A stretch of 64,000 nucleotides of DNA from Candidatus Nomurabacteria bacterium. Its GTDB lineage: Bacteria > Patescibacteriota > Minisyncoccia > Phycocordibacterales > UBA9973. The DNA lies in contig JAPLXO010000003.1 of NCBI GenBank assembly GCA_026396065.1, positions 1,304-65,303 on the forward strand, read 5' to 3'. Below the pieces are notes generated by a model. That model was given only the letters and a program-made list of their open reading frames with translations. It was not told where the DNA came from and made no database searches. The stretch's first letter is position 1. Each line of letters starts with the position of its first letter. A program made the position numbers and the translations under genes. Below, one piece after another: positions 4,622 to 46,046 of this stretch.

Positions 4622-4828
4622 AAGCCCGTGCGAATTTTTCCGAAAAAAGGAATCCCGCCGAAATCCCGCCCGCATTCCTCCCCAGACCCCTCCTGCGGGC
4701 GGGAAAACAGCCGAGGCAGGGCGAATCCAAAACCCCAGACAAATAGTTTCGCCTTGCCTCGTCCGCATTAGTATTTTTAATCATTTGGATTTTGCTCGAA
4801 AAACATTCGAACTTTGTCCAACAAACAC
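4622..4828. repeat. 207-bp inverted repeat copy B (right arm of the C-R-M cassette)
   Basis: Matches the reverse complement of 2187-2393. One nucleotide separates it from the 91-bp repeat. Confidence 0.85.
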
Positions 4829-4829
4829 G

Positions 4830-4920
4830 GCCAAAATTGAAAATCGGAATCGGAAGCCGAAATGGGGTCGGCACGAAGTGCCGACACAAATGTATTCCCC
4901 CCAAAAAATCCTGAATCTGA
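4830..4920. repeat. 91-bp inverted repeat, left arm flanking the serine recombinase gene
   Basis: Exact reverse complement of 6320-6410, verified base by base. The similarity continues imperfectly to ~4935. Confidence 0.9.
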
Positions 4921-4966
4921 AAGGGTTCGCCACGCTCCGCGTGGCTCCTCGTTTGCCAATACAATT

Positions 4967-6421
4967 ATGAATAATCAAACCAAAAAGTTTTTCATTTATA
5001 CTCGCAAGTCTACGGACGACAAAGACAGACAAGTTCGCAGTATTTCTGACCAATTATCGGAATTGAAAAGTTTAGCGTTGAAAGAACAAATTGATGTTGT
5101 TGATGTCTTTGTCGAAAAGCAGACCGCCAAAATACCAGGTCGCCCTGTGTTTAACGAAATGATGTTGAGAATGGAAGCGGGCGAAGCGTCTGGTATTTTG
5201 GCGTGGCATCCCGATAGACTTGCGAGAAATAGTGTTGATGGTGGGAAAATTATTTACCTCGTTGATACTGGCGTAATCGTGGAAATGAAATTCCCAACTT
5301 TTTGGTTTGATCCGACGCCGCAAGGCAAATTCATGCTCTCAATCGCTTTTTCGCAATCCAAGTATTATGTGGACAATTTGAGCGAGAATATCAAGCGAGG
5401 TCATCGCAACAAAGTGAAAGACGGGATATGGCCTCAAATGGCTCCGCTTGGATATGTAAACAAAAACAGAATGATTGTTCCCGATGAAAATATCGCACCA
5501 CTTATCAAGAAAACATTTGAGGCATATTCAACTGGGTCTTTCACTTTGCGACAACTCCGCGACAAATTTAATGAACTTGGATTGAAACGAAAAAGCGGAA
5601 AGGAACTTGCGGTGTCGAATTATCAAAAACTTTTGAAAAATCCGATATACACGGGCTTGATGTTGTATAACGGCGAAATCCACGAAGGTAAGCACGAGCC
5701 GATTATCATAAAGAAACTTTTTGATTCCGTTCAGGAAGTGATGATGAGAAAATCTAAACCTCACTCGAAAGGTCTAAAACCATTTTTGTATAGAGGATTT
5801 TTCCGTTGTGGAGAATGCGGTTGCTTCATTACTACCGAAACACAAAAGGGTCATAACTATTTGCGATGTACCAAACGGAAAAATCCTTGTTCACAAAAAT
5901 ATACGCGTGAGGAAATCATCACTTCCGAAATTCAAAAAGAAATCAAAAAAGTTTCTTTGCCAGACGATTGGGCTAAATGGATGTTGGCGGAAAACGAAAA
6001 AGACAAATTAGTGGAAGCCCAATCGTCTACGCTTTTTGCCGACAAAACAAAAGCCGATATTTCTCTTTTGGATTCTAAAATTGAGAAGCTGATGAACGCA
6101 TATTTAGAAAACGCACTTTCACTAGACGAGTATCGAGATATGAAAAACAAACTTGTGAATGAAAAACAGCTTCTCAAAGAGAAATTATCGGCTTTTGAGC
6201 AAAAAGCGAATAATCGGTTCGAACTTACCGAAAAGTTTTTGAAATACAATATAGAATTGGCAAACGAGGGAATAAATGAAGAGAAACTTCATTTATTCAA
6301 AAAAGTCGGTTCGAACTTTTCAGATTCAGGATTTTTTGGGGGGAATACATTTGTGTCGGCACTTCGTGCCGACCCCATTTCGGCTTCCGATTCCGATTTT
6401 CAATTTTGGCGGAGGCGGTGA
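4967..6421 (+). CDS. large serine recombinase (resolvase/invertase catalytic domain, recombinase domain, zinc ribbon and coiled coil)
   Basis: FFIYTRKSTDDKDRQVRSISDQ (catalytic Ser region). Cys cluster CGECGCF...C..RKNPC. Coiled-coil C-terminal region. The ORF track opens at 4862 inside the repeat; ATG at 4967 (MNNQTKK) is the more plausible start. The stop overlaps the tRNA 3' end. Confidence 0.85.
   Translation: MNNQTKKFFIYTRKSTDDKDRQVRSISDQLSELKSLALKEQIDVVDVFVEKQTAKIPGRPVFNEMMLRMEAGEASGILAWHPDRLARNSVDGGKIIYLVDTGVIVEMKFPTFWFDPTPQGKFMLSIAFSQSKYYVDNLSENIKRGHRNKVKDGIWPQMAPLGYVNKNRMIVPDENIAPLIKKTFEAYSTGSFTLRQLRDKFNELGLKRKSGKELAVSNYQKLLKNPIYTGLMLYNGEIHEGKHEPIIIKKLFDSVQEVMMRKSKPHSKGLKPFLYRGFFRCGECGCFITTETQKGHNYLRCTKRKNPCSQKYTREEIITSEIQKEIKKVSLPDDWAKWMLAENEKDKLVEAQSSTLFADKTKADISLLDSKIEKLMNAYLENALSLDEYRDMKNKLVNEKQLLKEKLSAFEQKANNRFELTEKFLKYNIELANEGINEEKLHLFKKVGSNFSDSGFFGGNTFVSALRADPISASDSDFQFWRRR
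6320..6410. repeat. 91-bp inverted repeat, right arm
   Basis: Reverse complement of 4830-4920. It encodes the last ~30 aa of the recombinase ORF and ends in TGGC, which is the complement of the tRNA discriminator and CCA. Confidence 0.9.
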
Positions 6422-6496
6422 GATTCGAACTCACGGACCCCGTAAAGAGTCTCTTGTTTTCAAGACAAGTGCCTTCAACCACTCAGCCACGCCTCC
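6407..6496 (-). tRNA. tRNA-Ser(TGA)
   Basis: Sequence GGAGGCGTGGCTGAGTGGTTGAAGGCACTTGTCTTGAAAACAAG...GTGAGTTCGAATCTCACCGCCTCCGCCA. Long variable arm, anticodon loop cTTGAAa, G73, encoded CCA. Confidence 0.85.
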
Positions 6497-22337: not shown

Positions 22338-22372
22338 AAAGCACCCCGACAATGTCGGGGTGCTTTACTTTT
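22338..22372 (+). terminator. rho-independent terminator after rplK
   Basis: AAAGCACCCCGACaatGTCGGGGTGCTTT followed by a T-run. Confidence 0.65.
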
Positions 22373-36225: not shown

Positions 36226-36264
36226 ACACCTCACCCCAACCCTCTCCTTATTAAGGAGAGTGGG
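36226..36264. repeat. GC-rich palindromic mini-element, intergenic copy
   Basis: ACACCTCACCCCAACCCTCTCCTTAttAAGGAGAGtGGG. Its first 25 nt are identical to the copy at 42444. Confidence 0.8.
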
Positions 36265-39726: not shown

Positions 39727-42700
39727 ATGGAAGAAAAAAAAGATACAACTAAATCAGAAATAGCACTTCGCGAAGAAGCGGTTTTGGCTTTTTGGCGAGA
39801 AAATAAAACATTTGAAAAATCTTTAGAAAAAGAATCTCCAAAAGGAAATTATGTTTTTTATGATGGTCCACCATTTGCGACAGGGCAGATGCACTACGGG
39901 CATATTTTAGGTTCGACTGCGAAAGATGTCATCGGTCGCTATCAAACTATGCGCGGATACCATGTTCCACGAAAATGGGGCTGGGATTGTCATGGTTTGC
40001 CTATTGAAAACATTGTAGAAAAAGAACTCGGAATAGCAGGACATAAAGAAATTGAAAAATATGGAATAGAAAAGTTTATTGAGTATGCACGAAGTAAAGT
40101 TTTGCAATATGAAGATGATTGGGAATCTGGTGTAGAGCGTATCGGTCGCTGGGTGGATTTTCGTGGTGGCTACAAGACGATGGATAATAATTTTATCGAA
40201 TCAGTGTGGTGGGCGCTTTCAGAATTTTATAAAAAAGGTTTAGTTTATGAAGGTGTGCGCGTACTGGCGTATTGCGCCCGCTGTGAGACACCAATAGCGA
40301 ATTCCGAAATCGCGATGGATAACAGTTATAAAGATATTTCTGATCTTTCAGTATATGTGAAATTTGAATTAGTAGACGAACCAAATACATATTTACTCGC
40401 GTGGACTACTACACCTTGGACTTTGCCAGGGAATACTGCTATCGCGATAAATAAAGATATTGATTATGTAAAAGTAAGACTTACAGAGGATGCTCAAATC
40501 CAAAAAGCTGGAACAGGTACTTATAATGTTTATACTCCTGAATTTTTAATTTTAGCTAAAGTTCTTGTTGAGAAAGTTTTAAAGGATAAAATATTTGAAG
40601 TTGTTGAAGAATATAAAGGTGAAAAATTAGTCGGAAAATCATACAAACCAATTTTTAAATATTATGAAAATGTTGAAATGCCAAATAAAGAAAATATTTG
40701 GAAAGTTTGGCATGCAGATTTCGTAACGACAGAAAAGGGAACAGGTATCGCACACCAAGCCCCAGCTTTCGGAGAAGAAGACTTCGTCTTGGCAAAAGAA
40801 AATAACGTACCATTTATTATTCACGTGAATAATACTGGCAAATTCGTAGATCAAGTTTCTGATATGGCAGGGCTAGCAGTAAAACCAAAAGACACAGCTG
40901 AAGACAAAGACGCGCACATGCGCACAGACATAGAAGTCATCAGAAAACTCCAAGAAAACGGAGCATTTTTTGCGAAAGAAAAAATACTGCACTCATACCC
41001 GCACTGTATGCGTTGTGATACTCCTATTATTTATTATGCTTTGCCATCTTGGTTTATCAATATCACGAAAGTAAAATCAGATATTGCAAAAAGTGCCGAA
41101 GAAATGAATTGGATTCCAGCGCACCTAAAAGATGGAAGATTTAAAAATATTTTAGAATCTGCCCCTGATTGGAATATCTCTCGCAATCGTTATTGGGCTT
41201 CGCCTCTTCCTGTTTGGAAATGCACGAAGTGTAAAGAAATGAAATTTATTTCTTCACTTGAAGATTTGAAAAAGCATACAAAAAAATCTGGAAATAAATA
41301 TTTTGTAATGCGTCATGGTGAGACAGAGGCAAATAAAAAAGGAATAATCTGTTCTATGCCTTCTGGTAAGTGGCATTTGGATGAAGATGGAATAAGGCAA
41401 GTCGAAAATGCAGGTGAGAATATGAAAGATAAGAAAATCGACTTGATATTTGTATCTGATTTTACTCGTACACAAGAAACAGCTGAAATAATGAGGTTAA
41501 AACTCGGCTTGGAAAAAGAGAGTGTAATAGTAGAGAAAAGGCTTCGTGAAATAGGCGCGTATTCTTTTGATGGAAAAGTTTGGGATGAATATCACGCATT
41601 TCATACAAAGACAGTAGAGAATTTCAACAAGCGCGTGAATGATGATGAATCGTACGAAGATGTGAAAGTTCGTATGACAGCATTCCTATATGAAATAGAA
41701 GAAAAATATAAAGGTAAAAATATTTTATTTGTCACTCACGGTGGGCCAGCTTGGCTTTTGACGGCAGGATCTATGGGTAATGATGTAAAAGAAACCTTGG
41801 CAATGATTTTAGATGTTAAGGATTATCATTATTTCCAAAATGCGGAAATAAAAGAATTGGATTTTACTCCTATCTCACACAATGCAAAATTTGAACTTGA
41901 TTTTCATCGACCATATATCGACAATATAAATCTCATTTGTGAGTGTGGTGAAGAAATGAAAAGAATCCCAGAAGTGCTGGATTGCTGGTTTGAATCTGGT
42001 TCTATGCCTTTCGCTCAAGATCATTTTCCTTTTGACCCCGAAGGAAAGATTACTTCCTACGGGGCAGGAAATTCAGACTGGGAAAAGAACAACTTTCCTG
42101 CAGGATTCGTGGCTGAATATATCGCTCAGACTAGAACATGGTTCAACTACACTCTCACAGTTTCTTCTGTTTTATTTGGTCATGCACCTTTTAAAAATGT
42201 CGTGACGACTGGAACTGTGCGCGCAGAAGATGGAGAAAAAATGTCTAAATCGAAAAATAATTTCCCTAATCCAAAGACTTTATTTGATAAGTATGGTGTG
42301 GATGCACTTCGTATGTATTTGATGTCTGGTCCACTAATGAAAGGGGAAGATGCGAATTTCGTAGAAAAACTCGTACAAGAAATATCTAGTAAAATAGTCG
42401 GCCGACTTGAAAACGTTGTTGCCTTTTATGAATTGTATAAAGACACCTCACCCCAACCCTCTCCTTATAAAGGAGAGGGAGCTAAAAACGTGCTTGATGT
42501 ATGGATTCTTTCTCGACTTGCACAAGTGATGGAAGAAGTGACTCTTGGTATGGAAGCTTATGATATGGCTTCGGCTACAAAACCTTTTGATTTATTTATC
42601 GATGACCTTTCTACTTGGTATCTCCGTCGTTCCCGTGACAGAATGAAAGAAGAGGCAAGCAACCCCGAAGGAAAGAGTACTTCCTACGGGGCAAGAACGA

Positions 42701-43347
42701 CTTTGTATTTTGTACTCAAAAATTTGGCAAAAGTCATAGCTCCGTTTGCGCCATTCGTGTCAGAAAACATTTGGATGAAATTGCGACTTGAGAATGAAGT
42801 TGAAAGTGTACATTTAGTAAACTGGCCCGACCTCACCCTGCCCTCTCCTGGAGAGGAGAGGGTTCTAGAAGAGATGCAGAAAACGAGAAACATTGTTTCT
42901 GTGGGATTAAAAGAGAGGCAAAAATTAGGAATTCCTGTGCGTCAGGTTTTGGGTGGTGTGAAAGTTAGTATTGAAAAATTAGATAATGAATATTTAGATT
43001 TAATAAAAGAAGAGTTGAACGTCAAAGAAGTGACACTAGAAACTAGCAACTCGAACCTAGAAACTAGTGTCGTACTCGACACGGTCATTACTCCCGAACT
43101 AAAAGAAGAAGGGAACTACCGTGAACTCGTTCGCGCGATTCAAGACATGCGTAAAAAAGCAGGGCTCACTCCTTCAGATATAATTTCTCTTTCTATAGAA
43201 ACTGACGAGATAGGAAAATCTTTAATTCAAAAATTCGAAGCTGATTTCAAGAAAACTATTTTGGTGAAAGAAATAAAGTTTGAGAGTAATACTGGGGAAG
43301 AAGTAAAAGTGGATACTTTAATCTTTAAAGTTAGTATTGAAAAATAA
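39727..43347 (+). CDS. ileS: isoleucyl-tRNA synthetase carrying an embedded histidine-phosphatase domain and several in-frame palindromic mini-insertions
   Basis: HIGH (PFATGQMHYGHIL), editing domain, KMSKS (GEKMSKSKNN), zinc-knuckle halves CTKC ... CECG. 1206 aa, versus roughly 920-1050 aa for typical IleS. Confidence 0.95.
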   Translation: MEEKKDTTKSEIALREEAVLAFWRENKTFEKSLEKESPKGNYVFYDGPPFATGQMHYGHILGSTAKDVIGRYQTMRGYHVPRKWGWDCHGLPIENIVEKELGIAGHKEIEKYGIEKFIEYARSKVLQYEDDWESGVERIGRWVDFRGGYKTMDNNFIESVWWALSEFYKKGLVYEGVRVLAYCARCETPIANSEIAMDNSYKDISDLSVYVKFELVDEPNTYLLAWTTTPWTLPGNTAIAINKDIDYVKVRLTEDAQIQKAGTGTYNVYTPEFLILAKVLVEKVLKDKIFEVVEEYKGEKLVGKSYKPIFKYYENVEMPNKENIWKVWHADFVTTEKGTGIAHQAPAFGEEDFVLAKENNVPFIIHVNNTGKFVDQVSDMAGLAVKPKDTAEDKDAHMRTDIEVIRKLQENGAFFAKEKILHSYPHCMRCDTPIIYYALPSWFINITKVKSDIAKSAEEMNWIPAHLKDGRFKNILESAPDWNISRNRYWASPLPVWKCTKCKEMKFISSLEDLKKHTKKSGNKYFVMRHGETEANKKGIICSMPSGKWHLDEDGIRQVENAGENMKDKKIDLIFVSDFTRTQETAEIMRLKLGLEKESVIVEKRLREIGAYSFDGKVWDEYHAFHTKTVENFNKRVNDDESYEDVKVRMTAFLYEIEEKYKGKNILFVTHGGPAWLLTAGSMGNDVKETLAMILDVKDYHYFQNAEIKELDFTPISHNAKFELDFHRPYIDNINLICECGEEMKRIPEVLDCWFESGSMPFAQDHFPFDPEGKITSYGAGNSDWEKNNFPAGFVAEYIAQTRTWFNYTLTVSSVLFGHAPFKNVVTTGTVRAEDGEKMSKSKNNFPNPKTLFDKYGVDALRMYLMSGPLMKGEDANFVEKLVQEISSKIVGRLENVVAFYELYKDTSPQPSPYKGEGAKNVLDVWILSRLAQVMEEVTLGMEAYDMASATKPFDLFIDDLSTWYLRRSRDRMKEEASNPEGKSTSYGARTTLYFVLKNLAKVIAPFAPFVSENIWMKLRLENEVESVHLVNWPDLTLPSPGEERVLEEMQKTRNIVSVGLKERQKLGIPVRQVLGGVKVSIEKLDNEYLDLIKEELNVKEVTLETSNSNLETSVVLDTVITPELKEEGNYRELVRAIQDMRKKAGLTPSDIISLSIETDEIGKSLIQKFEADFKKTILVKEIKFESNTGEEVKVDTLIFKVSIEK
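41240..41900 (+). other. in-frame histidine phosphatase (PGAM-like) domain inserted between the two zinc-knuckle halves of IleS
   Basis: YFVMRHGETEANKKG (RHG catalytic His motif) ... ILFVTHGGPAWLL (second conserved His motif). ~220 aa between PVWKCTKCKE and ICECGEEM. Confidence 0.7.
42036..42064. repeat. 29-bp palindromic insert CCCCGAAGGAAAGATTACTTCCTACGGGG, in-frame in ileS
   Basis: Encodes PEGKITSYG. A second copy at 42663-42691 differs by one nt. Confidence 0.8.
42444..42479. repeat. GC-rich palindromic mini-element, in-frame in ileS
   Basis: CACCTCACCCCAACCCTCTCCTTataAAGGAGAGGG with a 10-bp perfect stem. Encodes TSPQPSPYKGEG. Confidence 0.85.
42663..42691. repeat. second copy of the 29-bp palindromic insert, in-frame in ileS
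   Basis: CCCCGAAGGAAAGAGTACTTCCTACGGGG. Encodes PEGKSTSYG. Confidence 0.8.
42831..42862. repeat. variant GC-rich palindromic mini-element, in-frame in ileS
   Basis: CCTCACCCTGCCCTCTCCTggagAGGAGAGGG. Encodes LTLPSPGEER. Confidence 0.7.
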
Positions 43348-43530: not shown

Positions 43531-44112
43531 ATGAAAAAATTTAAACTTGTATTGGTAATTGTTGCAATAGTTGCTTCAATTATCGCGAATGTTGTGTATG
43601 TACCTGAAGTTCGCATCCTTTGCTTTATTTTCGAATACTTCGCACTCGGTTTTTTACTTCTGCAAATTATCGCAGAGGAAAGTGGAATTGAAGTTATGAA
43701 ATTACCTGATTCTGAAACAGGCGAAACGATTTCAAAAGACTTCTTGAACTCGGGTTATTACTACGAGGGCATAGATGGCTTTTGGAAAAGTTTAGCAAAA
43801 CTTCTTCCCATTTTTCCTAAGGAAATTCTTCTTCAACAAATCAACGAAGGAGTAAAAACTGAAGAACAAATGATGGATGGCAGGAATTGGTTGTCGAGAA
43901 AGGAAGCTATGAGTTTCGGAGCACAAAATGTTAAAAGCGGTGAGTACAAAGACGGAAAGGTACGTATTTACTTCTTTAAAGACGAAGAAAACAAAGGTCA
44001 GCGCTCTGAGCTCTGCGTTTGTTTGGATGGTGACAGTCCGGACGTGGACGTGGGCAAGTTCAATCCAGAGAACCGGTGGCGCAATGGCCGCATCTCGTAT
44101 TCTCGCAAATAG
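43531..44112 (+). CDS. DGR target protein: small membrane-anchored protein with a C-terminal variable region
   Basis: N-terminal TM helices. The last ~37 codons (43996-44107) form the VR paired with the TR at 44458-44569. Confidence 0.7.
   Translation: MKKFKLVLVIVAIVASIIANVVYVPEVRILCFIFEYFALGFLLLQIIAEESGIEVMKLPDSETGETISKDFLNSGYYYEGIDGFWKSLAKLLPIFPKEILLQQINEGVKTEEQMMDGRNWLSRKEAMSFGAQNVKSGEYKDGKVRIYFFKDEENKGQRSELCVCLDGDSPDVDVGKFNPENRWRNGRISYSRK
43996..44107 (+). repeat. DGR variable repeat (VR)
   Basis: 112-bp alignment with the TR. About 20 mismatches, every one at a position where the TR has A (the VR has G or C). Confidence 0.85.
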
Positions 44113-44132
44113 ATATTTGCGAAACTTATCTT

Positions 44133-44175
44133 AAAGGGCTCTTTGATTCTTTTGAATCTGGGGCCCTTTAATTTT
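44133..44175 (+). terminator. GC hairpin plus T-run just downstream of the VR (terminator and/or homing-associated hairpin)
   Basis: AAAGGGC-23 nt-GCCCTTT followed by a T run. Confidence 0.45.
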
Positions 44176-44457
44176 TTTTTATTTTTTAAAATGTTAGAAT
44201 ATATACAGAACAGTGCGGTAATTTTCGGCAGTGTCCAATATTCTAATTAGAATACAAGCTTCTTGAAATACATTGTTTCGATTTTAATACGGTCAGAATT
44301 GTGTCGGCGAATTTTTATTTTCTTACACAAGAGCACGATATTATTTTCCATTAAAAAAATATTTATTGGTGATACTACTAGTGAGCTTCGATGCTCCAAA
44401 TAATATTCAAAAGTTTATGATTTAAACTTTGGTGGCACAGATGGTCGTATCACAGAA

Positions 44458-44569
44458 GGTCAGCGCTCTAAACTCTACGTTTATTTGAATGGTGACAATC
44501 CGAACGTGAACGTGAACAAGTTCAATCCAGAGAACAAGTGGAACAATGGCAACATCTCGTATTCTCGAA
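44458..44569 (+). repeat. DGR template repeat (TR), non-coding
   Basis: Rich in AAC/AAT codons when read in the VR frame (GQRSKLYVYLNGDNPNVNVNKFNPENKWNNGNISYSRN). No ORF covers it. Confidence 0.85.
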
Positions 44570-44640
44570 ACAAAAATTTTCTCCCCGTTTATCATTTTGG
44601 TAAATGAGGAGTTTTTAATTTACGTACATTTCTGCTATCG

Positions 44641-44985
44641 CTAGGATTTACGTAATTTTGTTTCGATTCCTTTTTTCCAACCTCCTAAAATTTTACCGAC
44701 TTCGTGAAGTTTACTTGAAAGTTCTAAATATTCTTTTTCTTTGATCAATTTGTTTTCAAAAGCAATTTGAAGTAGGTATTTTATAATGTCGTTCTTACTG
44801 ATAGCTTCGACTATCACAATGCTTTTGTTTTCCATCCCAGCATAGTATGCTTTGTAGATGAGTTCAAGTAAATCTAAAAAATGGTTTTCAATTCTGGCAC
44901 CAGTTGTATATCTGCCGATACGAGGCATATGAGGGACGATATTACTACACCAAATAGCGAAGCTCTCTTTTGTTCGCAAGATCAC
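44641..44985 (-). CDS. avd: DGR accessory variability determinant (Avd), four-helix-bundle protein
   Basis: 114 aa. C-terminal EVGKILGGW matches Bordetella phage Avd EVGRILGSW. Resembles the 23S-rRNA-IVS protein family. Confidence 0.75.
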   Translation of the reverse strand: MILRTKESFAIWCSNIVPHMPRIGRYTTGARIENHFLDLLELIYKAYYAGMENKSIVIVEAISKNDIIKYLLQIAFENKLIKEKEYLELSSKLHEVGKILGGWKKGIETKLRKS

Positions 44986-45010
44986 ACTGGCTTTCTCGAT
45001 GGAAAAAGTA

Positions 45011-45033
45011 GTGTGTGTGTGTGTGTGTGTGTG
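45011..45033. repeat. (GT)11.5 dinucleotide microsatellite at the start of the RT ORF
   Basis: GTGTGTGTGTGTGTGTGTGTGTG. Encodes VCVCVC at the RT N-terminus. Lies 26-48 nt upstream of the avd start on the other strand. Confidence 0.9.
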
Positions 45034-46046
45034 GATTCAGCCATGCCTTCAATAATATCATATTGGTAGAAAATTTGTTTGTATCGTGGCGAGAATTTTT
45101 GCGAGGTAAAAGCAAACGAAAAGATGTGATTTTGTTTGGAATGAATTTGATGGATAATATTTTTTCTCTCCACAACGACCTTAAAAATAAAAAATATAAA
45201 CACAGTAATTACGAAGCATTTAAAATAAACGACCCGAAACCGAGAGACATACACAAAGCCAGTGTGCGAGACAGACTTTTACACCATTCTATCTATCGTA
45301 CGCTGTATCCGTACTTTGATAAGAAATTCATTTACGATTCATATTCTTGCCGATTAGGAAAGGGAACACATAAAGCAATATATAGATTTGAAAGTTTTGT
45401 AAATAAAGTAAGCAAGAATAATACAAAAACCTGCTGGGTTTTGAAATGCGACATCAGAAAGTTTTTTGCAAATATTGACCATGAAATATTGAAAAACATT
45501 TTGGCGAAATACATACAAGACAAAGATACATTAAATTTGTTAAGGAATATAATAGATAGCTTTCAAAGTGACACAAACTCTGCCTATGCAGAAAGTGTGT
45601 CACTTTCTGCTATTGGTTTACCGTTAGGTAATTTAACTTCACAGCTTCTAGTAAATATTTATATGAATGAATTTGATCAGTACGTGAAGCATAAGCTCAA
45701 AGTGAAATATTATATTAGATATGCGGATGATTTTGTAGTATTGAGTGAAGATAAAAAGTATTTGGAAGAAATACTGGAAGAAGTCGCAAATTTTCTGAAA
45801 GAAAATTTGCGACTAAAGTTACATCCAAACAAAGTTTTTAGTAAAACAATATTTTCTGGTGTAGACTTTCTCGGCTGGGTGCATTTTCCAAGACATCGAG
45901 TGTTGCGAAATGCTACTAAAAAAAGAATGCTTAGAAATTTAAAGAAAAATAGTAGTGAAAATGTAAAAGCTTCATATTTAGGAATGTTGAGTCATGGGAA
46001 TGGTTTTAAATTAAAGAATCATATTTACGCCATGGCTGAGATATAA
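45015..46046 (+). CDS. DGR reverse transcriptase
   Basis: IGLPLGNLTSQ (DGR-specific IGxxxSQ motif 4), YADD (YIRYADDFVV). N-terminus ILVENLFVSWREFLRGKSKRKD aligns to Bordetella bRT. Apparent GTG start inside the GT tract. Confidence 0.9.
   Translation: MCVCVCGFSHAFNNIILVENLFVSWREFLRGKSKRKDVILFGMNLMDNIFSLHNDLKNKKYKHSNYEAFKINDPKPRDIHKASVRDRLLHHSIYRTLYPYFDKKFIYDSYSCRLGKGTHKAIYRFESFVNKVSKNNTKTCWVLKCDIRKFFANIDHEILKNILAKYIQDKDTLNLLRNIIDSFQSDTNSAYAESVSLSAIGLPLGNLTSQLLVNIYMNEFDQYVKHKLKVKYYIRYADDFVVLSEDKKYLEEILEEVANFLKENLRLKLHPNKVFSKTIFSGVDFLGWVHFPRHRVLRNATKKRMLRNLKKNSSENVKASYLGMLSHGNGFKLKNHIYAMAEI

Follow-up and report, generated by a model that had tools for sequence, protein, structure and literature searches.

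Two copies of a short hairpin in ileS

The stretch of DNA analysed here, 64,000 nt of a Candidatus Nomurabacteria contig (JAPLXO010000003.1, positions 1,304 to 65,303 of the forward strand, assembly GCA_026396065.1; hereafter the window), contains the gene of the isoleucyl-tRNA synthetase (ileS), and within this gene lie two copies of a short imperfect palindrome. The encoded IleS gave Pfam matches with tRNA-synt_1 (2.7e-116), Anticodon_1, DUF5915 and His_Phos_1, and was 100% identical to a protein of a Candidatus Nomurabacteria metagenome-assembled genome (P0001). The initial annotation of the window had described two palindromic 29-mers, 627 bp apart, that are translated with the host gene. 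Exact pattern matching confirmed both of them in frame on the + strand, at 42036-42064 and 42663-42691, differing at a single loop base (T/G), and the translation of the open reading frame (ORF) gave the proposed peptides, PEGKITSYG for copy 1 and PEGKSTSYG for copy 2. The imperfect 10-bp stem was also found, as 5 + 5 bp around a conserved A·A mismatch, and an extra G-C pair is possible in its apical part. The 29-mers are thus real, but the full element is not of 29 nt: it comprises 33 nt, the 29-mer plus CAGG. The 33-nt units of the two copies differ at 2/33 nt, and the repeat between them reaches 36 nt (ACCCC…GGGGCARGAA) with 94% identity. The folding energy of the hairpin is -15.4 kcal/mol for RNA and -9.2 for DNA (z-scores from -3.4 to -4.6). 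A degenerate 29-mer pattern matched the window exactly twice and none of 100 dinucleotide-preserving shuffles, and a covariance model (R1) retrieved from the window these two ileS copies alone, with about 57 bits each. The coordinates of the copies and of the other features of the window are collected in Table 1.

Comparison of IleS orthologues revealed that the motif is not conserved at either site. In an alignment of 33 IleS proteins, the one from the window alone had 11 additional residues (PEGKITSYGAG) at site 1 and nine at site 2, and both copies were missing from 32/32 orthologues, including those with 78% and 72% identity. Among the best 120 IleS matches the motif was present only in the window protein and in P0083, 118/120 being without it, and no decayed remnants were detected at the two sites of the window. 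In P0083 the motif likewise adds 11 residues, but at aa 217, which is a third position. Its copy has two substitutions, one of them a synonymous C-to-T change in the clamp of the hairpin, and hence at least one copy is decaying.

The same absence was observed at DNA level. The two closest orthologues (L121 and L123, with 78% and 72% protein identity, respectively) have at site 1 the empty sequence TTT GA/A AAT, where the slash marks the point at which the window shows an exact insertion of 33 nt, the 29-mer plus CAGG, without target-site duplication. At site 2 the net difference with respect to both orthologues is +27 nt (9 codons), explained either by the absence of 6 nt of target or by an overlap between the tail GCAAG and the GCAAAG of the target. 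The ileS of the window and that of its closest relative are only 58% identical at third codon positions, yet the two hairpin copies differ at 2/33 nt, and the copies are accordingly young. In addition, the two copies share rare codons (CCC, 3% of Pro; TCC, 5% of Ser; AAG and GGG, 14% each), which argues against convergent coding. A comparable insertion was identified in UvrC, in which removal of 33 nt from the filled site (GA[33 nt]T) restores the empty protein sequence GKD/LIE with no duplication; this site was empty in 117 of the best 120 orthologues. At the UvrC site and at other orthologous sites shared between genomes, loop types vary by species (GCAAGC or GAGTAC) but the stem does not change, even though the host proteins have only about 60-75% identity; this constancy of the stems is exaggerated by their ascertainment through exact matches. 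The loop variants fit re-insertion or gene conversion. Altogether, the absence from orthologues, the clean insertion at DNA level, the rare codons and the copies found elsewhere support the proposal of the initial annotation that a mobile palindrome was inserted in ileS and that its two copies did not arise by convergent coding.

When the protein was compared with the solved isoleucyl-tRNA synthetase (IleRS) structure 8c9d, the insert of site 1 corresponded to a clean gap of 11 residues in the catalytic domain, flanked by HYPFE and NSELF. Comparison with solved IleRS structures put site 2 in a loop of the anticodon-binding domain. Copy 1 therefore lies in the catalytic domain, as had been annotated, but copy 2 is inside Anticodon_1 (aa 924-1073) and not before it. 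In an AlphaFold model of IleS residues 700-1206, site 2 appeared as a low-confidence coil between two confident helices (fragment residues 280-289); the same fragment was uninformative at site 1, as the truncated catalytic domain was poorly modelled (predicted local distance difference test below 50). On these models and comparisons, the inserts would occupy positions of IleS that tolerate extra residues. The catalytic region of IleS also contains an inserted His_Phos_1 domain, present in all the best 120 orthologues and consequently a feature of the clade.

The hairpin family across Patescibacteria

Copies of the element were searched for in 185,579 species-representative genomes (596 Gb) with the pattern CCCCGWAGGAA N5-9 TTCCTWCGGGG. 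At least 120 matches were obtained, whereas about 1-2 would be expected by chance according to our own estimate. Among the matches listed there were 103 asymmetric copies from about 80 assemblies, nearly all of Patescibacteria and mainly of Parcubacteria/Paceibacteria lineages, and several genomes with 2-4 copies each; the approximately 15 matches from other phyla were ordinary perfect palindromes. Taxon names are those assigned by the depositors, and the labels included Nomurabacteria, Paceibacterota/Paceibacteria/Minisyncoccia, Giovannoni-, Wolfe-, Nealson-, Taylor- and Kerfeldbacteria, and 'uncultured Saccharibacteria', the last being probably a loose name for Patescibacteria. Two loci bear labels from elsewhere, a 1075-bp contig labelled Thermoplasmatota (L108) and one labelled Gammaproteobacteria (L085). 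Both have the element in genes orthologous to other element-carrying loci, and the former is identical to a Nomurabacteria locus (L023) over the approximately 150 nt shown. They are probably mis-binned contigs. The results that follow refer to copies gathered by this exact-match pattern, with crude ORF calling and about 8 kb sampled per genome.

All the copies (103/103) share the asymmetric form CCCCGAAGGAA…TTCCTACGGGG, with the A·A mismatch, a bulged A and the 3' tail CAGG. The unit can be written as CCCCG-A-AGGAA-A-G[4-nt loop]C-TTCCT-A-CGGGG-CAGG, that is, an outer clamp CCCCG/CGGGG, the A·A mismatch, the bulged A, a variable apical part and the single-stranded 3' tail. The main loop types are G-CAAG-C and G-AGTA-C. 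The flanks showed A at position -1 in 81% of copies and C, A, G and G at positions +1 to +4 in 92, 96, 70 and 92%, respectively. The element is inserted with precise borders, without duplication of its target, and is multi-copy in many lineages. It was absent from 2.9 million viral contigs, in which phage carriage was looked for, and a peptide search of the protein database with a concatenated-motif query gave nothing at E <= 10.

Copies outside the window were found both in coding and in noncoding DNA, the coding ones mostly in one frame. Seventy-one of the 103 copies are inside long ORFs. Length and location were clearly associated: hairpins of 29 nt (33-nt unit) were coding in 64 cases and noncoding in 12, and those of 30 nt (34-nt unit), which would shift the frame, were mostly noncoding (7 vs 20; Fisher P = 7e-8). 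Of 64 coding copies, 53 (83%) are in sense orientation in the frame PEGKxxSYGAG; the remaining sense copies are divided between the two other frames (six and two), and three copies are antisense. The probability of finding 53/64 in one frame, when 1/5 is expected, is 6e-27 (binomial test). The element has no stop in its sense frames, and one antisense frame contains TAG; as the unit amounts to 11 codons free of sense-frame stops, its insertion does not break the host gene. At least 35 distinct host sites were recognized, among them IleS, UvrA, UvrC, PNPase, tRNA-guanine transglycosylase and P-type ATPases, although, except for IleS and UvrC, these hosts were named by our own reading of conserved motifs in the flanking protein and not by a tool. 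None of 40 host genes (0/40) was in the local minority orientation, for which 12-16% was expected (P ~0.001-0.006), and this suggests, but does not establish, a link to the replication strand.

The noncoding copies are in 5' leaders, and some of them are found just upstream of start codons. Six have a tRNA gene within 400 nt (at 21-79 nt), and all six are co-oriented with it, five being upstream. Noncoding copies at six loci (L019, L022, L038, L041, L053 and L098) directly follow partial 5' fragments of tRNA genes, and an intact tRNA gene is found 20-220 nt downstream. At L019 the hairpin has an acceptor-like 5' strand on one side and a T-arm with a 3' acceptor strand on the other, and at L022 the flanks make an acceptor-like stem around the hairpin. 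The flanks of several noncoding copies resemble tRNA D-arms, but insertion into working tRNA genes was rejected because neither ARAGORN nor Rfam called a tRNA across the copies, and the relationship is one of association only.

A search of the loci with R1 gave diverged copies which keep the outer ACCCCG…ACGGGGCAGG and show compensatory changes of the inner stem from AGGAA/TTCCT to ACGAA/TTCGT, ACCAA/TTGGT or AGGAG/CTCCT. In some of them the inner hairpin is wholly different. Pair counting on an alignment that was fitted to the covariance model, and is for that reason biased towards structure, found 99% of cells paired and five pairs changed on both sides; none of 500 shuffles reached the observed values, and slid registers were far worse than the true one. 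The maintenance of the outer clamp together with compensatory inner changes indicates that conservation concerns the shape of the hairpin, its clamp and its tail. The copies show biased orientation, frame and length and a compensatory inner stem, and they include young ones and at least one in decay. At gathering threshold, Rfam identified in the window and in 18 loci tRNAs and one 16S rRNA only, and a known RNA family for the hairpin was therefore rejected.

Origin of the inserts

We interpret the palindromes of ileS as recent independent insertions of a 33-nt selfish, structure-dependent hairpin that has spread across Patescibacteria, and we give to this interpretation a probability of about 0.78. 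Each insertion would add 11 codons with no sense-frame stop and leave the host gene readable, and copies would survive only where the added peptide, nearly always P-E-G-K-x-x-S-Y-G-A-G in a surface loop, is harmless. By analogy with the 'peel and paste' of IS200/IS605 or with repetitive extragenic palindromes and their associated tyrosine transposases (REP/RAYT), mobilisation may act on the folded single strand, which would be recognized by its shape and by the sequence of its foot and tail. Such a single-strand mobilisation would explain why no duplication is seen, why the two strands are asymmetric, and why sites are either filled or cleanly empty.

Several observations weigh against this interpretation. 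The collection by exact match builds in part of the uniformity of the copies. The noncoding copies are not strictly co-oriented with their neighbour genes (18 co-oriented vs 8 opposed), and the variation of loops at shared sites could also mean that the hairpin is maintained there. The target preference is weak, with only A at -1, unlike the 4-5-nt targets of IS200/IS605. In a tblastn search with IS608 TnpA and the RAYT of E. coli, no match was obtained in the window or in the Patescibacteria loci, with about 8 kb sampled per genome, which is a weak negative; one Bilophila locus was the only one that these queries matched. Finally, there is no direct evidence of movement and no presence/absence polymorphism within a population, and a scan of metagenomes for the empty allele of site 1 gave no match.

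Four other explanations were considered, and all of them are weaker than a selfish hairpin. The first is that the hairpin is a functional nucleic-acid signal under selection, for instance an RNA hairpin for a protein or RNase acting in mRNA or tRNA-precursor processing, stability or control of translation. The almost exclusive sense orientation of coding copies, the co-orientation of the noncoding copies near tRNA genes and the position of others just upstream of start codons speak in its favour, as do the conservation of mismatch, bulge and 3' tail, the compensatory inner stem, and the stems shared by genomes with divergent host proteins. However, the positions are not conserved, since neither the orthologue with 78% identity nor 118 of the best 120 IleS have the ileS copies and 117 of 120 UvrC sites are empty; decay affects a clamp base in the copy of P0083; at coding sites the strict 3n length and the use of one frame show that the protein is what is constrained; and no Rfam family matched in the window or in the 18 loci scanned. 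We consider this explanation unlikely.

Even less probable is a local origin, in which one ileS copy was made from the other by intragenic duplication or gene conversion. It would agree with the presence in 64 kb of only two copies, separated by 627 bp in one gene and different at 2/33 nt, and with the atypical junction of site 2, where the net gain is of 27 nt and GCAAG microhomology is possible. The flanks, however, have nothing in common outside the element, the repeat ending at 36 nt, and each copy matches common variants of other genomes. The same 830 bp contain two copies of an unrelated hairpin family (see below) and other IleS orthologues have inserts in these loops too, which points to tolerant loops and not to copying within the gene. 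Even if true, a local origin would account for the second copy only and not for the family.

A diversity-generating retroelement (DGR) is located just downstream of ileS, and its reverse transcriptase could have copied a small hairpin RNA into nearby DNA. This DGR is complete and begins 0.2 kb and ends 2.7 kb from the gene, and the closest relative has neither DGR nor hairpins. But no homologue of the reverse transcriptase was retrieved by tblastn from the 123 loci (about 0.9 Mb) carrying the element, on which ground a link of the hairpins to this enzyme was rejected; the copies are devoid of the adenine-specific mutation pattern; and retrohoming needs homology with the variable repeat (VR), which ileS lacks. 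This origin is thus highly improbable. As to convergent or conserved coding of a useful peptide PEGKxxSYGAG without any mobile DNA, the near invariance of the peptide and its placement in loops are outweighed by the same rare codons in every copy, the noncoding copies, the use of other reading frames and the absence of the motif from orthologues, and it can practically be dismissed.

Other candidates were also discarded. DNA uptake sequences come by substitution and not by insertion of 33 nt. Ribosomal bypassing and RNA excision do not agree with the 3n length and the single frame, which argue for translation. An assembly artefact was rejected because about 80 independent assemblies have copies in frame.

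A bolder proposal, which we make tentatively and regard as rather doubtful, is that this is the smallest known in-frame mobile element, a 33-nt strand-specific hairpin transposon which makes no duplications and is active across much of Patescibacteria, with an enzyme that reads the A·A mismatch, the bulged A and the CAGG tail, and with essential genes that keep acquiring copies and losing them cleanly. The 30-nt noncoding copies adjacent to tRNA genes could then be the source copies, or could have been adopted by the host.

Patescibacteria have tiny, gene-dense genomes with almost no room for selfish DNA, and a hairpin of 11 codons shows how such DNA can persist inside essential genes. It represents a steady supply of short protein insertions in these bacteria, which inflate the apparent divergence of proteins, create spurious 'lineage-specific loops' and can mislead alignments, phylogenies and structure predictions. 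Moreover, so small an element with a sharply defined recognition shape offers a handle for finding a new hairpin-specific DNA- or RNA-processing enzyme in a group with few cultured members.

Other inserts were observed in the window and in related loci. A second family of GC-rich hairpins, (A)CCTCACCCC…CCCTCTCC-loop-GGAGAGGG, of which full copies elsewhere end in GGGGTGAGGT, is represented three times in the window. The ileS copies of this family are translated as TSPQPSPYKGEG and DLTLPSPGEER, and seven of the fetched loci contain ten more, with both orientations and several frames represented. As both families have two copies in ileS, this gene contains four hairpin elements within 830 bp. 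Different short inserts occupy the same loops in other IleS of Patescibacteria (P0009, P0015, P0017, P0018, P0049, P0065 and P0079) and are also present in the UvrC ORFs of two loci (L077 and L087); examples of these other inserts are SSFAQGFGRTG, ESSKPASAQGYG, PISEQAQYGAGR, PSPLSLLRRGGGEG and SPRRGGAR. These inserts suggest a large number of hairpin families dispersed among the proteins of Patescibacteria. The complete DGR of the window is absent from L121. Near the start of the window there are two inverted repeats, both bracketing genes, and a tRNA adjoins them.

Table 1. Features of the window discussed in the text. Positions are those of the window unless amino acids (aa) are indicated; R1, score with the covariance model; TR, template repeat of the DGR.
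Feature	Position	Strand	Remarks
Host gene ileS, 1206 aa	39727..43347	+	both copies sense, same reading frame
Copy 1 of the 33-nt element	42036..42068	+	CCCCGAAGGAAAGATTACTTCCTACGGGG plus CAGG; R1 57.4 bits
Translation of copy 1	IleS aa 771-781	+	(D)PEGKITSYGAG
Copy 2 of the 33-nt element	42663..42695	+	CCCCGAAGGAAAGAGTACTTCCTACGGGG plus CAAG; R1 57.6 bits
Translation of copy 2	IleS aa 980-990	+	(N)PEGKSTSYGAR
Predicted tryptic peptide across insert	IleS		ITSYGAGNSDWEK
His_Phos_1 insert of IleS	41302-41811 (aa 526-695)		6.6e-33
Second hairpin family	36226-36262, 42443-42483, 42826-42863		two in ileS, one between dut and argS
Complete DGR	43531-46046		just downstream of ileS
DGR target ORF	43531-44112		VR at 43994-44108
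DGR TR	44456-44570		all 17 TR/VR mismatches at TR adenines: 13 A>G, 4 A>C
DGR reverse transcriptase ORF	45015-46046		RVT_1, 1.6e-27
Inverted repeat	2184-2393 / 4622-4831		210 nt, 97%
Inverted repeat	4830-4922 / 6318-6410		93 nt, 100%
tRNA	6410-6496		adjoins the inverted repeats

Comparison with known systems

No published description of this hairpin was found in open-access papers and bioRxiv preprints, and it was compared with the classes of repeats that it resembles. It is not a CRISPR array, in which direct repeats are regularly spaced by unique spacers: the window has two copies only, separated by 627 bp within a conserved ORF. The GC-rich CCCCG/CGGGG stem recalls intrinsic terminators and terminator-like mobile repeats such as SPRITE of pneumococcus (compare window 22338-22366), but the hairpin is followed by CAGG(A/C/T), with no T-run, and is in sense orientation within ORFs. 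Unlike the target-site hairpin of a DGR, the ileS copies are more than 1.3 kb from VR, and there is no reverse transcriptase near the other 103 copies. Miniature inverted-repeat transposable elements are sequences of 50-500 bp with terminal inverted repeats plus a target-site duplication, in contrast to the 33 nt of the hairpin and to the absence of duplication at site 1 of ileS and at the UvrC site.

In yeast mitochondria, GC clusters and 'byp' elements are short GC-rich mobile hairpins, the latter being skipped by the ribosome and so not needing to be 3n or free of stops. Repetitive hairpin elements are also present in the mitochondria of sponges (PMC2800124). Like the Patescibacteria element, these mitochondrial hairpins are of about 30-55 nt, GC-rich, and invade AT-rich compact genomes including their coding regions; they are nevertheless organellar, and ordinary translation is indicated for the Patescibacteria element by its 3n length and single frame.

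The likeness to REP/RAYT consists in an imperfect palindrome of 20-40 nt with conserved irregularities in multiple copies, in this case of 29-30 nt with a mismatch and a bulge. With both REP/RAYT and IS200/IS605 the hairpin shares strands that are not equivalent, the lack of target-site duplication and a short conserved sequence beside the hairpin foot. Nevertheless, REPs are extragenic and often clustered, whereas this element is dispersed, with 71/103 copies in long ORFs. With regard to the GTAG or CGTC tetranucleotide that REPs have at one end of the palindrome, GTAG is present in the bottom strand (CCTGCCCCGTAGG), but inside the stem and not before it. Elements derived from IS200/IS605 (palindrome-associated transposable elements, PATE) are inserted by TnpA in a strand-specific manner 3' of a fixed 4-5-nt target without duplication; in the present case the target preference is a single A, and no Y1 transposase was detected in the DNA sampled.

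The closest parallel is provided by the Rickettsia palindromic elements (RPEs), reportedly the subject of studies by Ogata et al. in 2000 and 2002. A published account, in the part that deals with them, presents RPEs as palindromic sequences of about 100-150 bp, of about ten families, which are in frame in Rickettsia genes, translated and tolerated (PMC10969869). In both cases a repeated palindrome of a small AT-rich genome is found in frame in unrelated housekeeping genes and also in noncoding DNA, the extra peptide is translated and tolerated by the fold, and no transposase is known. Unlike RPEs, which are 3-5 times longer, the Patescibacteria element is a single short hairpin of 33 nt (11 codons); RPEs are confined to Rickettsia, whereas this element spans lineages, and no relationship in sequence is possible between them. 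The restriction to one frame (83%) and the split of 29- and 30-nt hairpins between coding and noncoding DNA are documented here for the Patescibacteria element. It works like an RPE but is not an RPE, and by this analogy it may be regarded as a much smaller counterpart of these elements.

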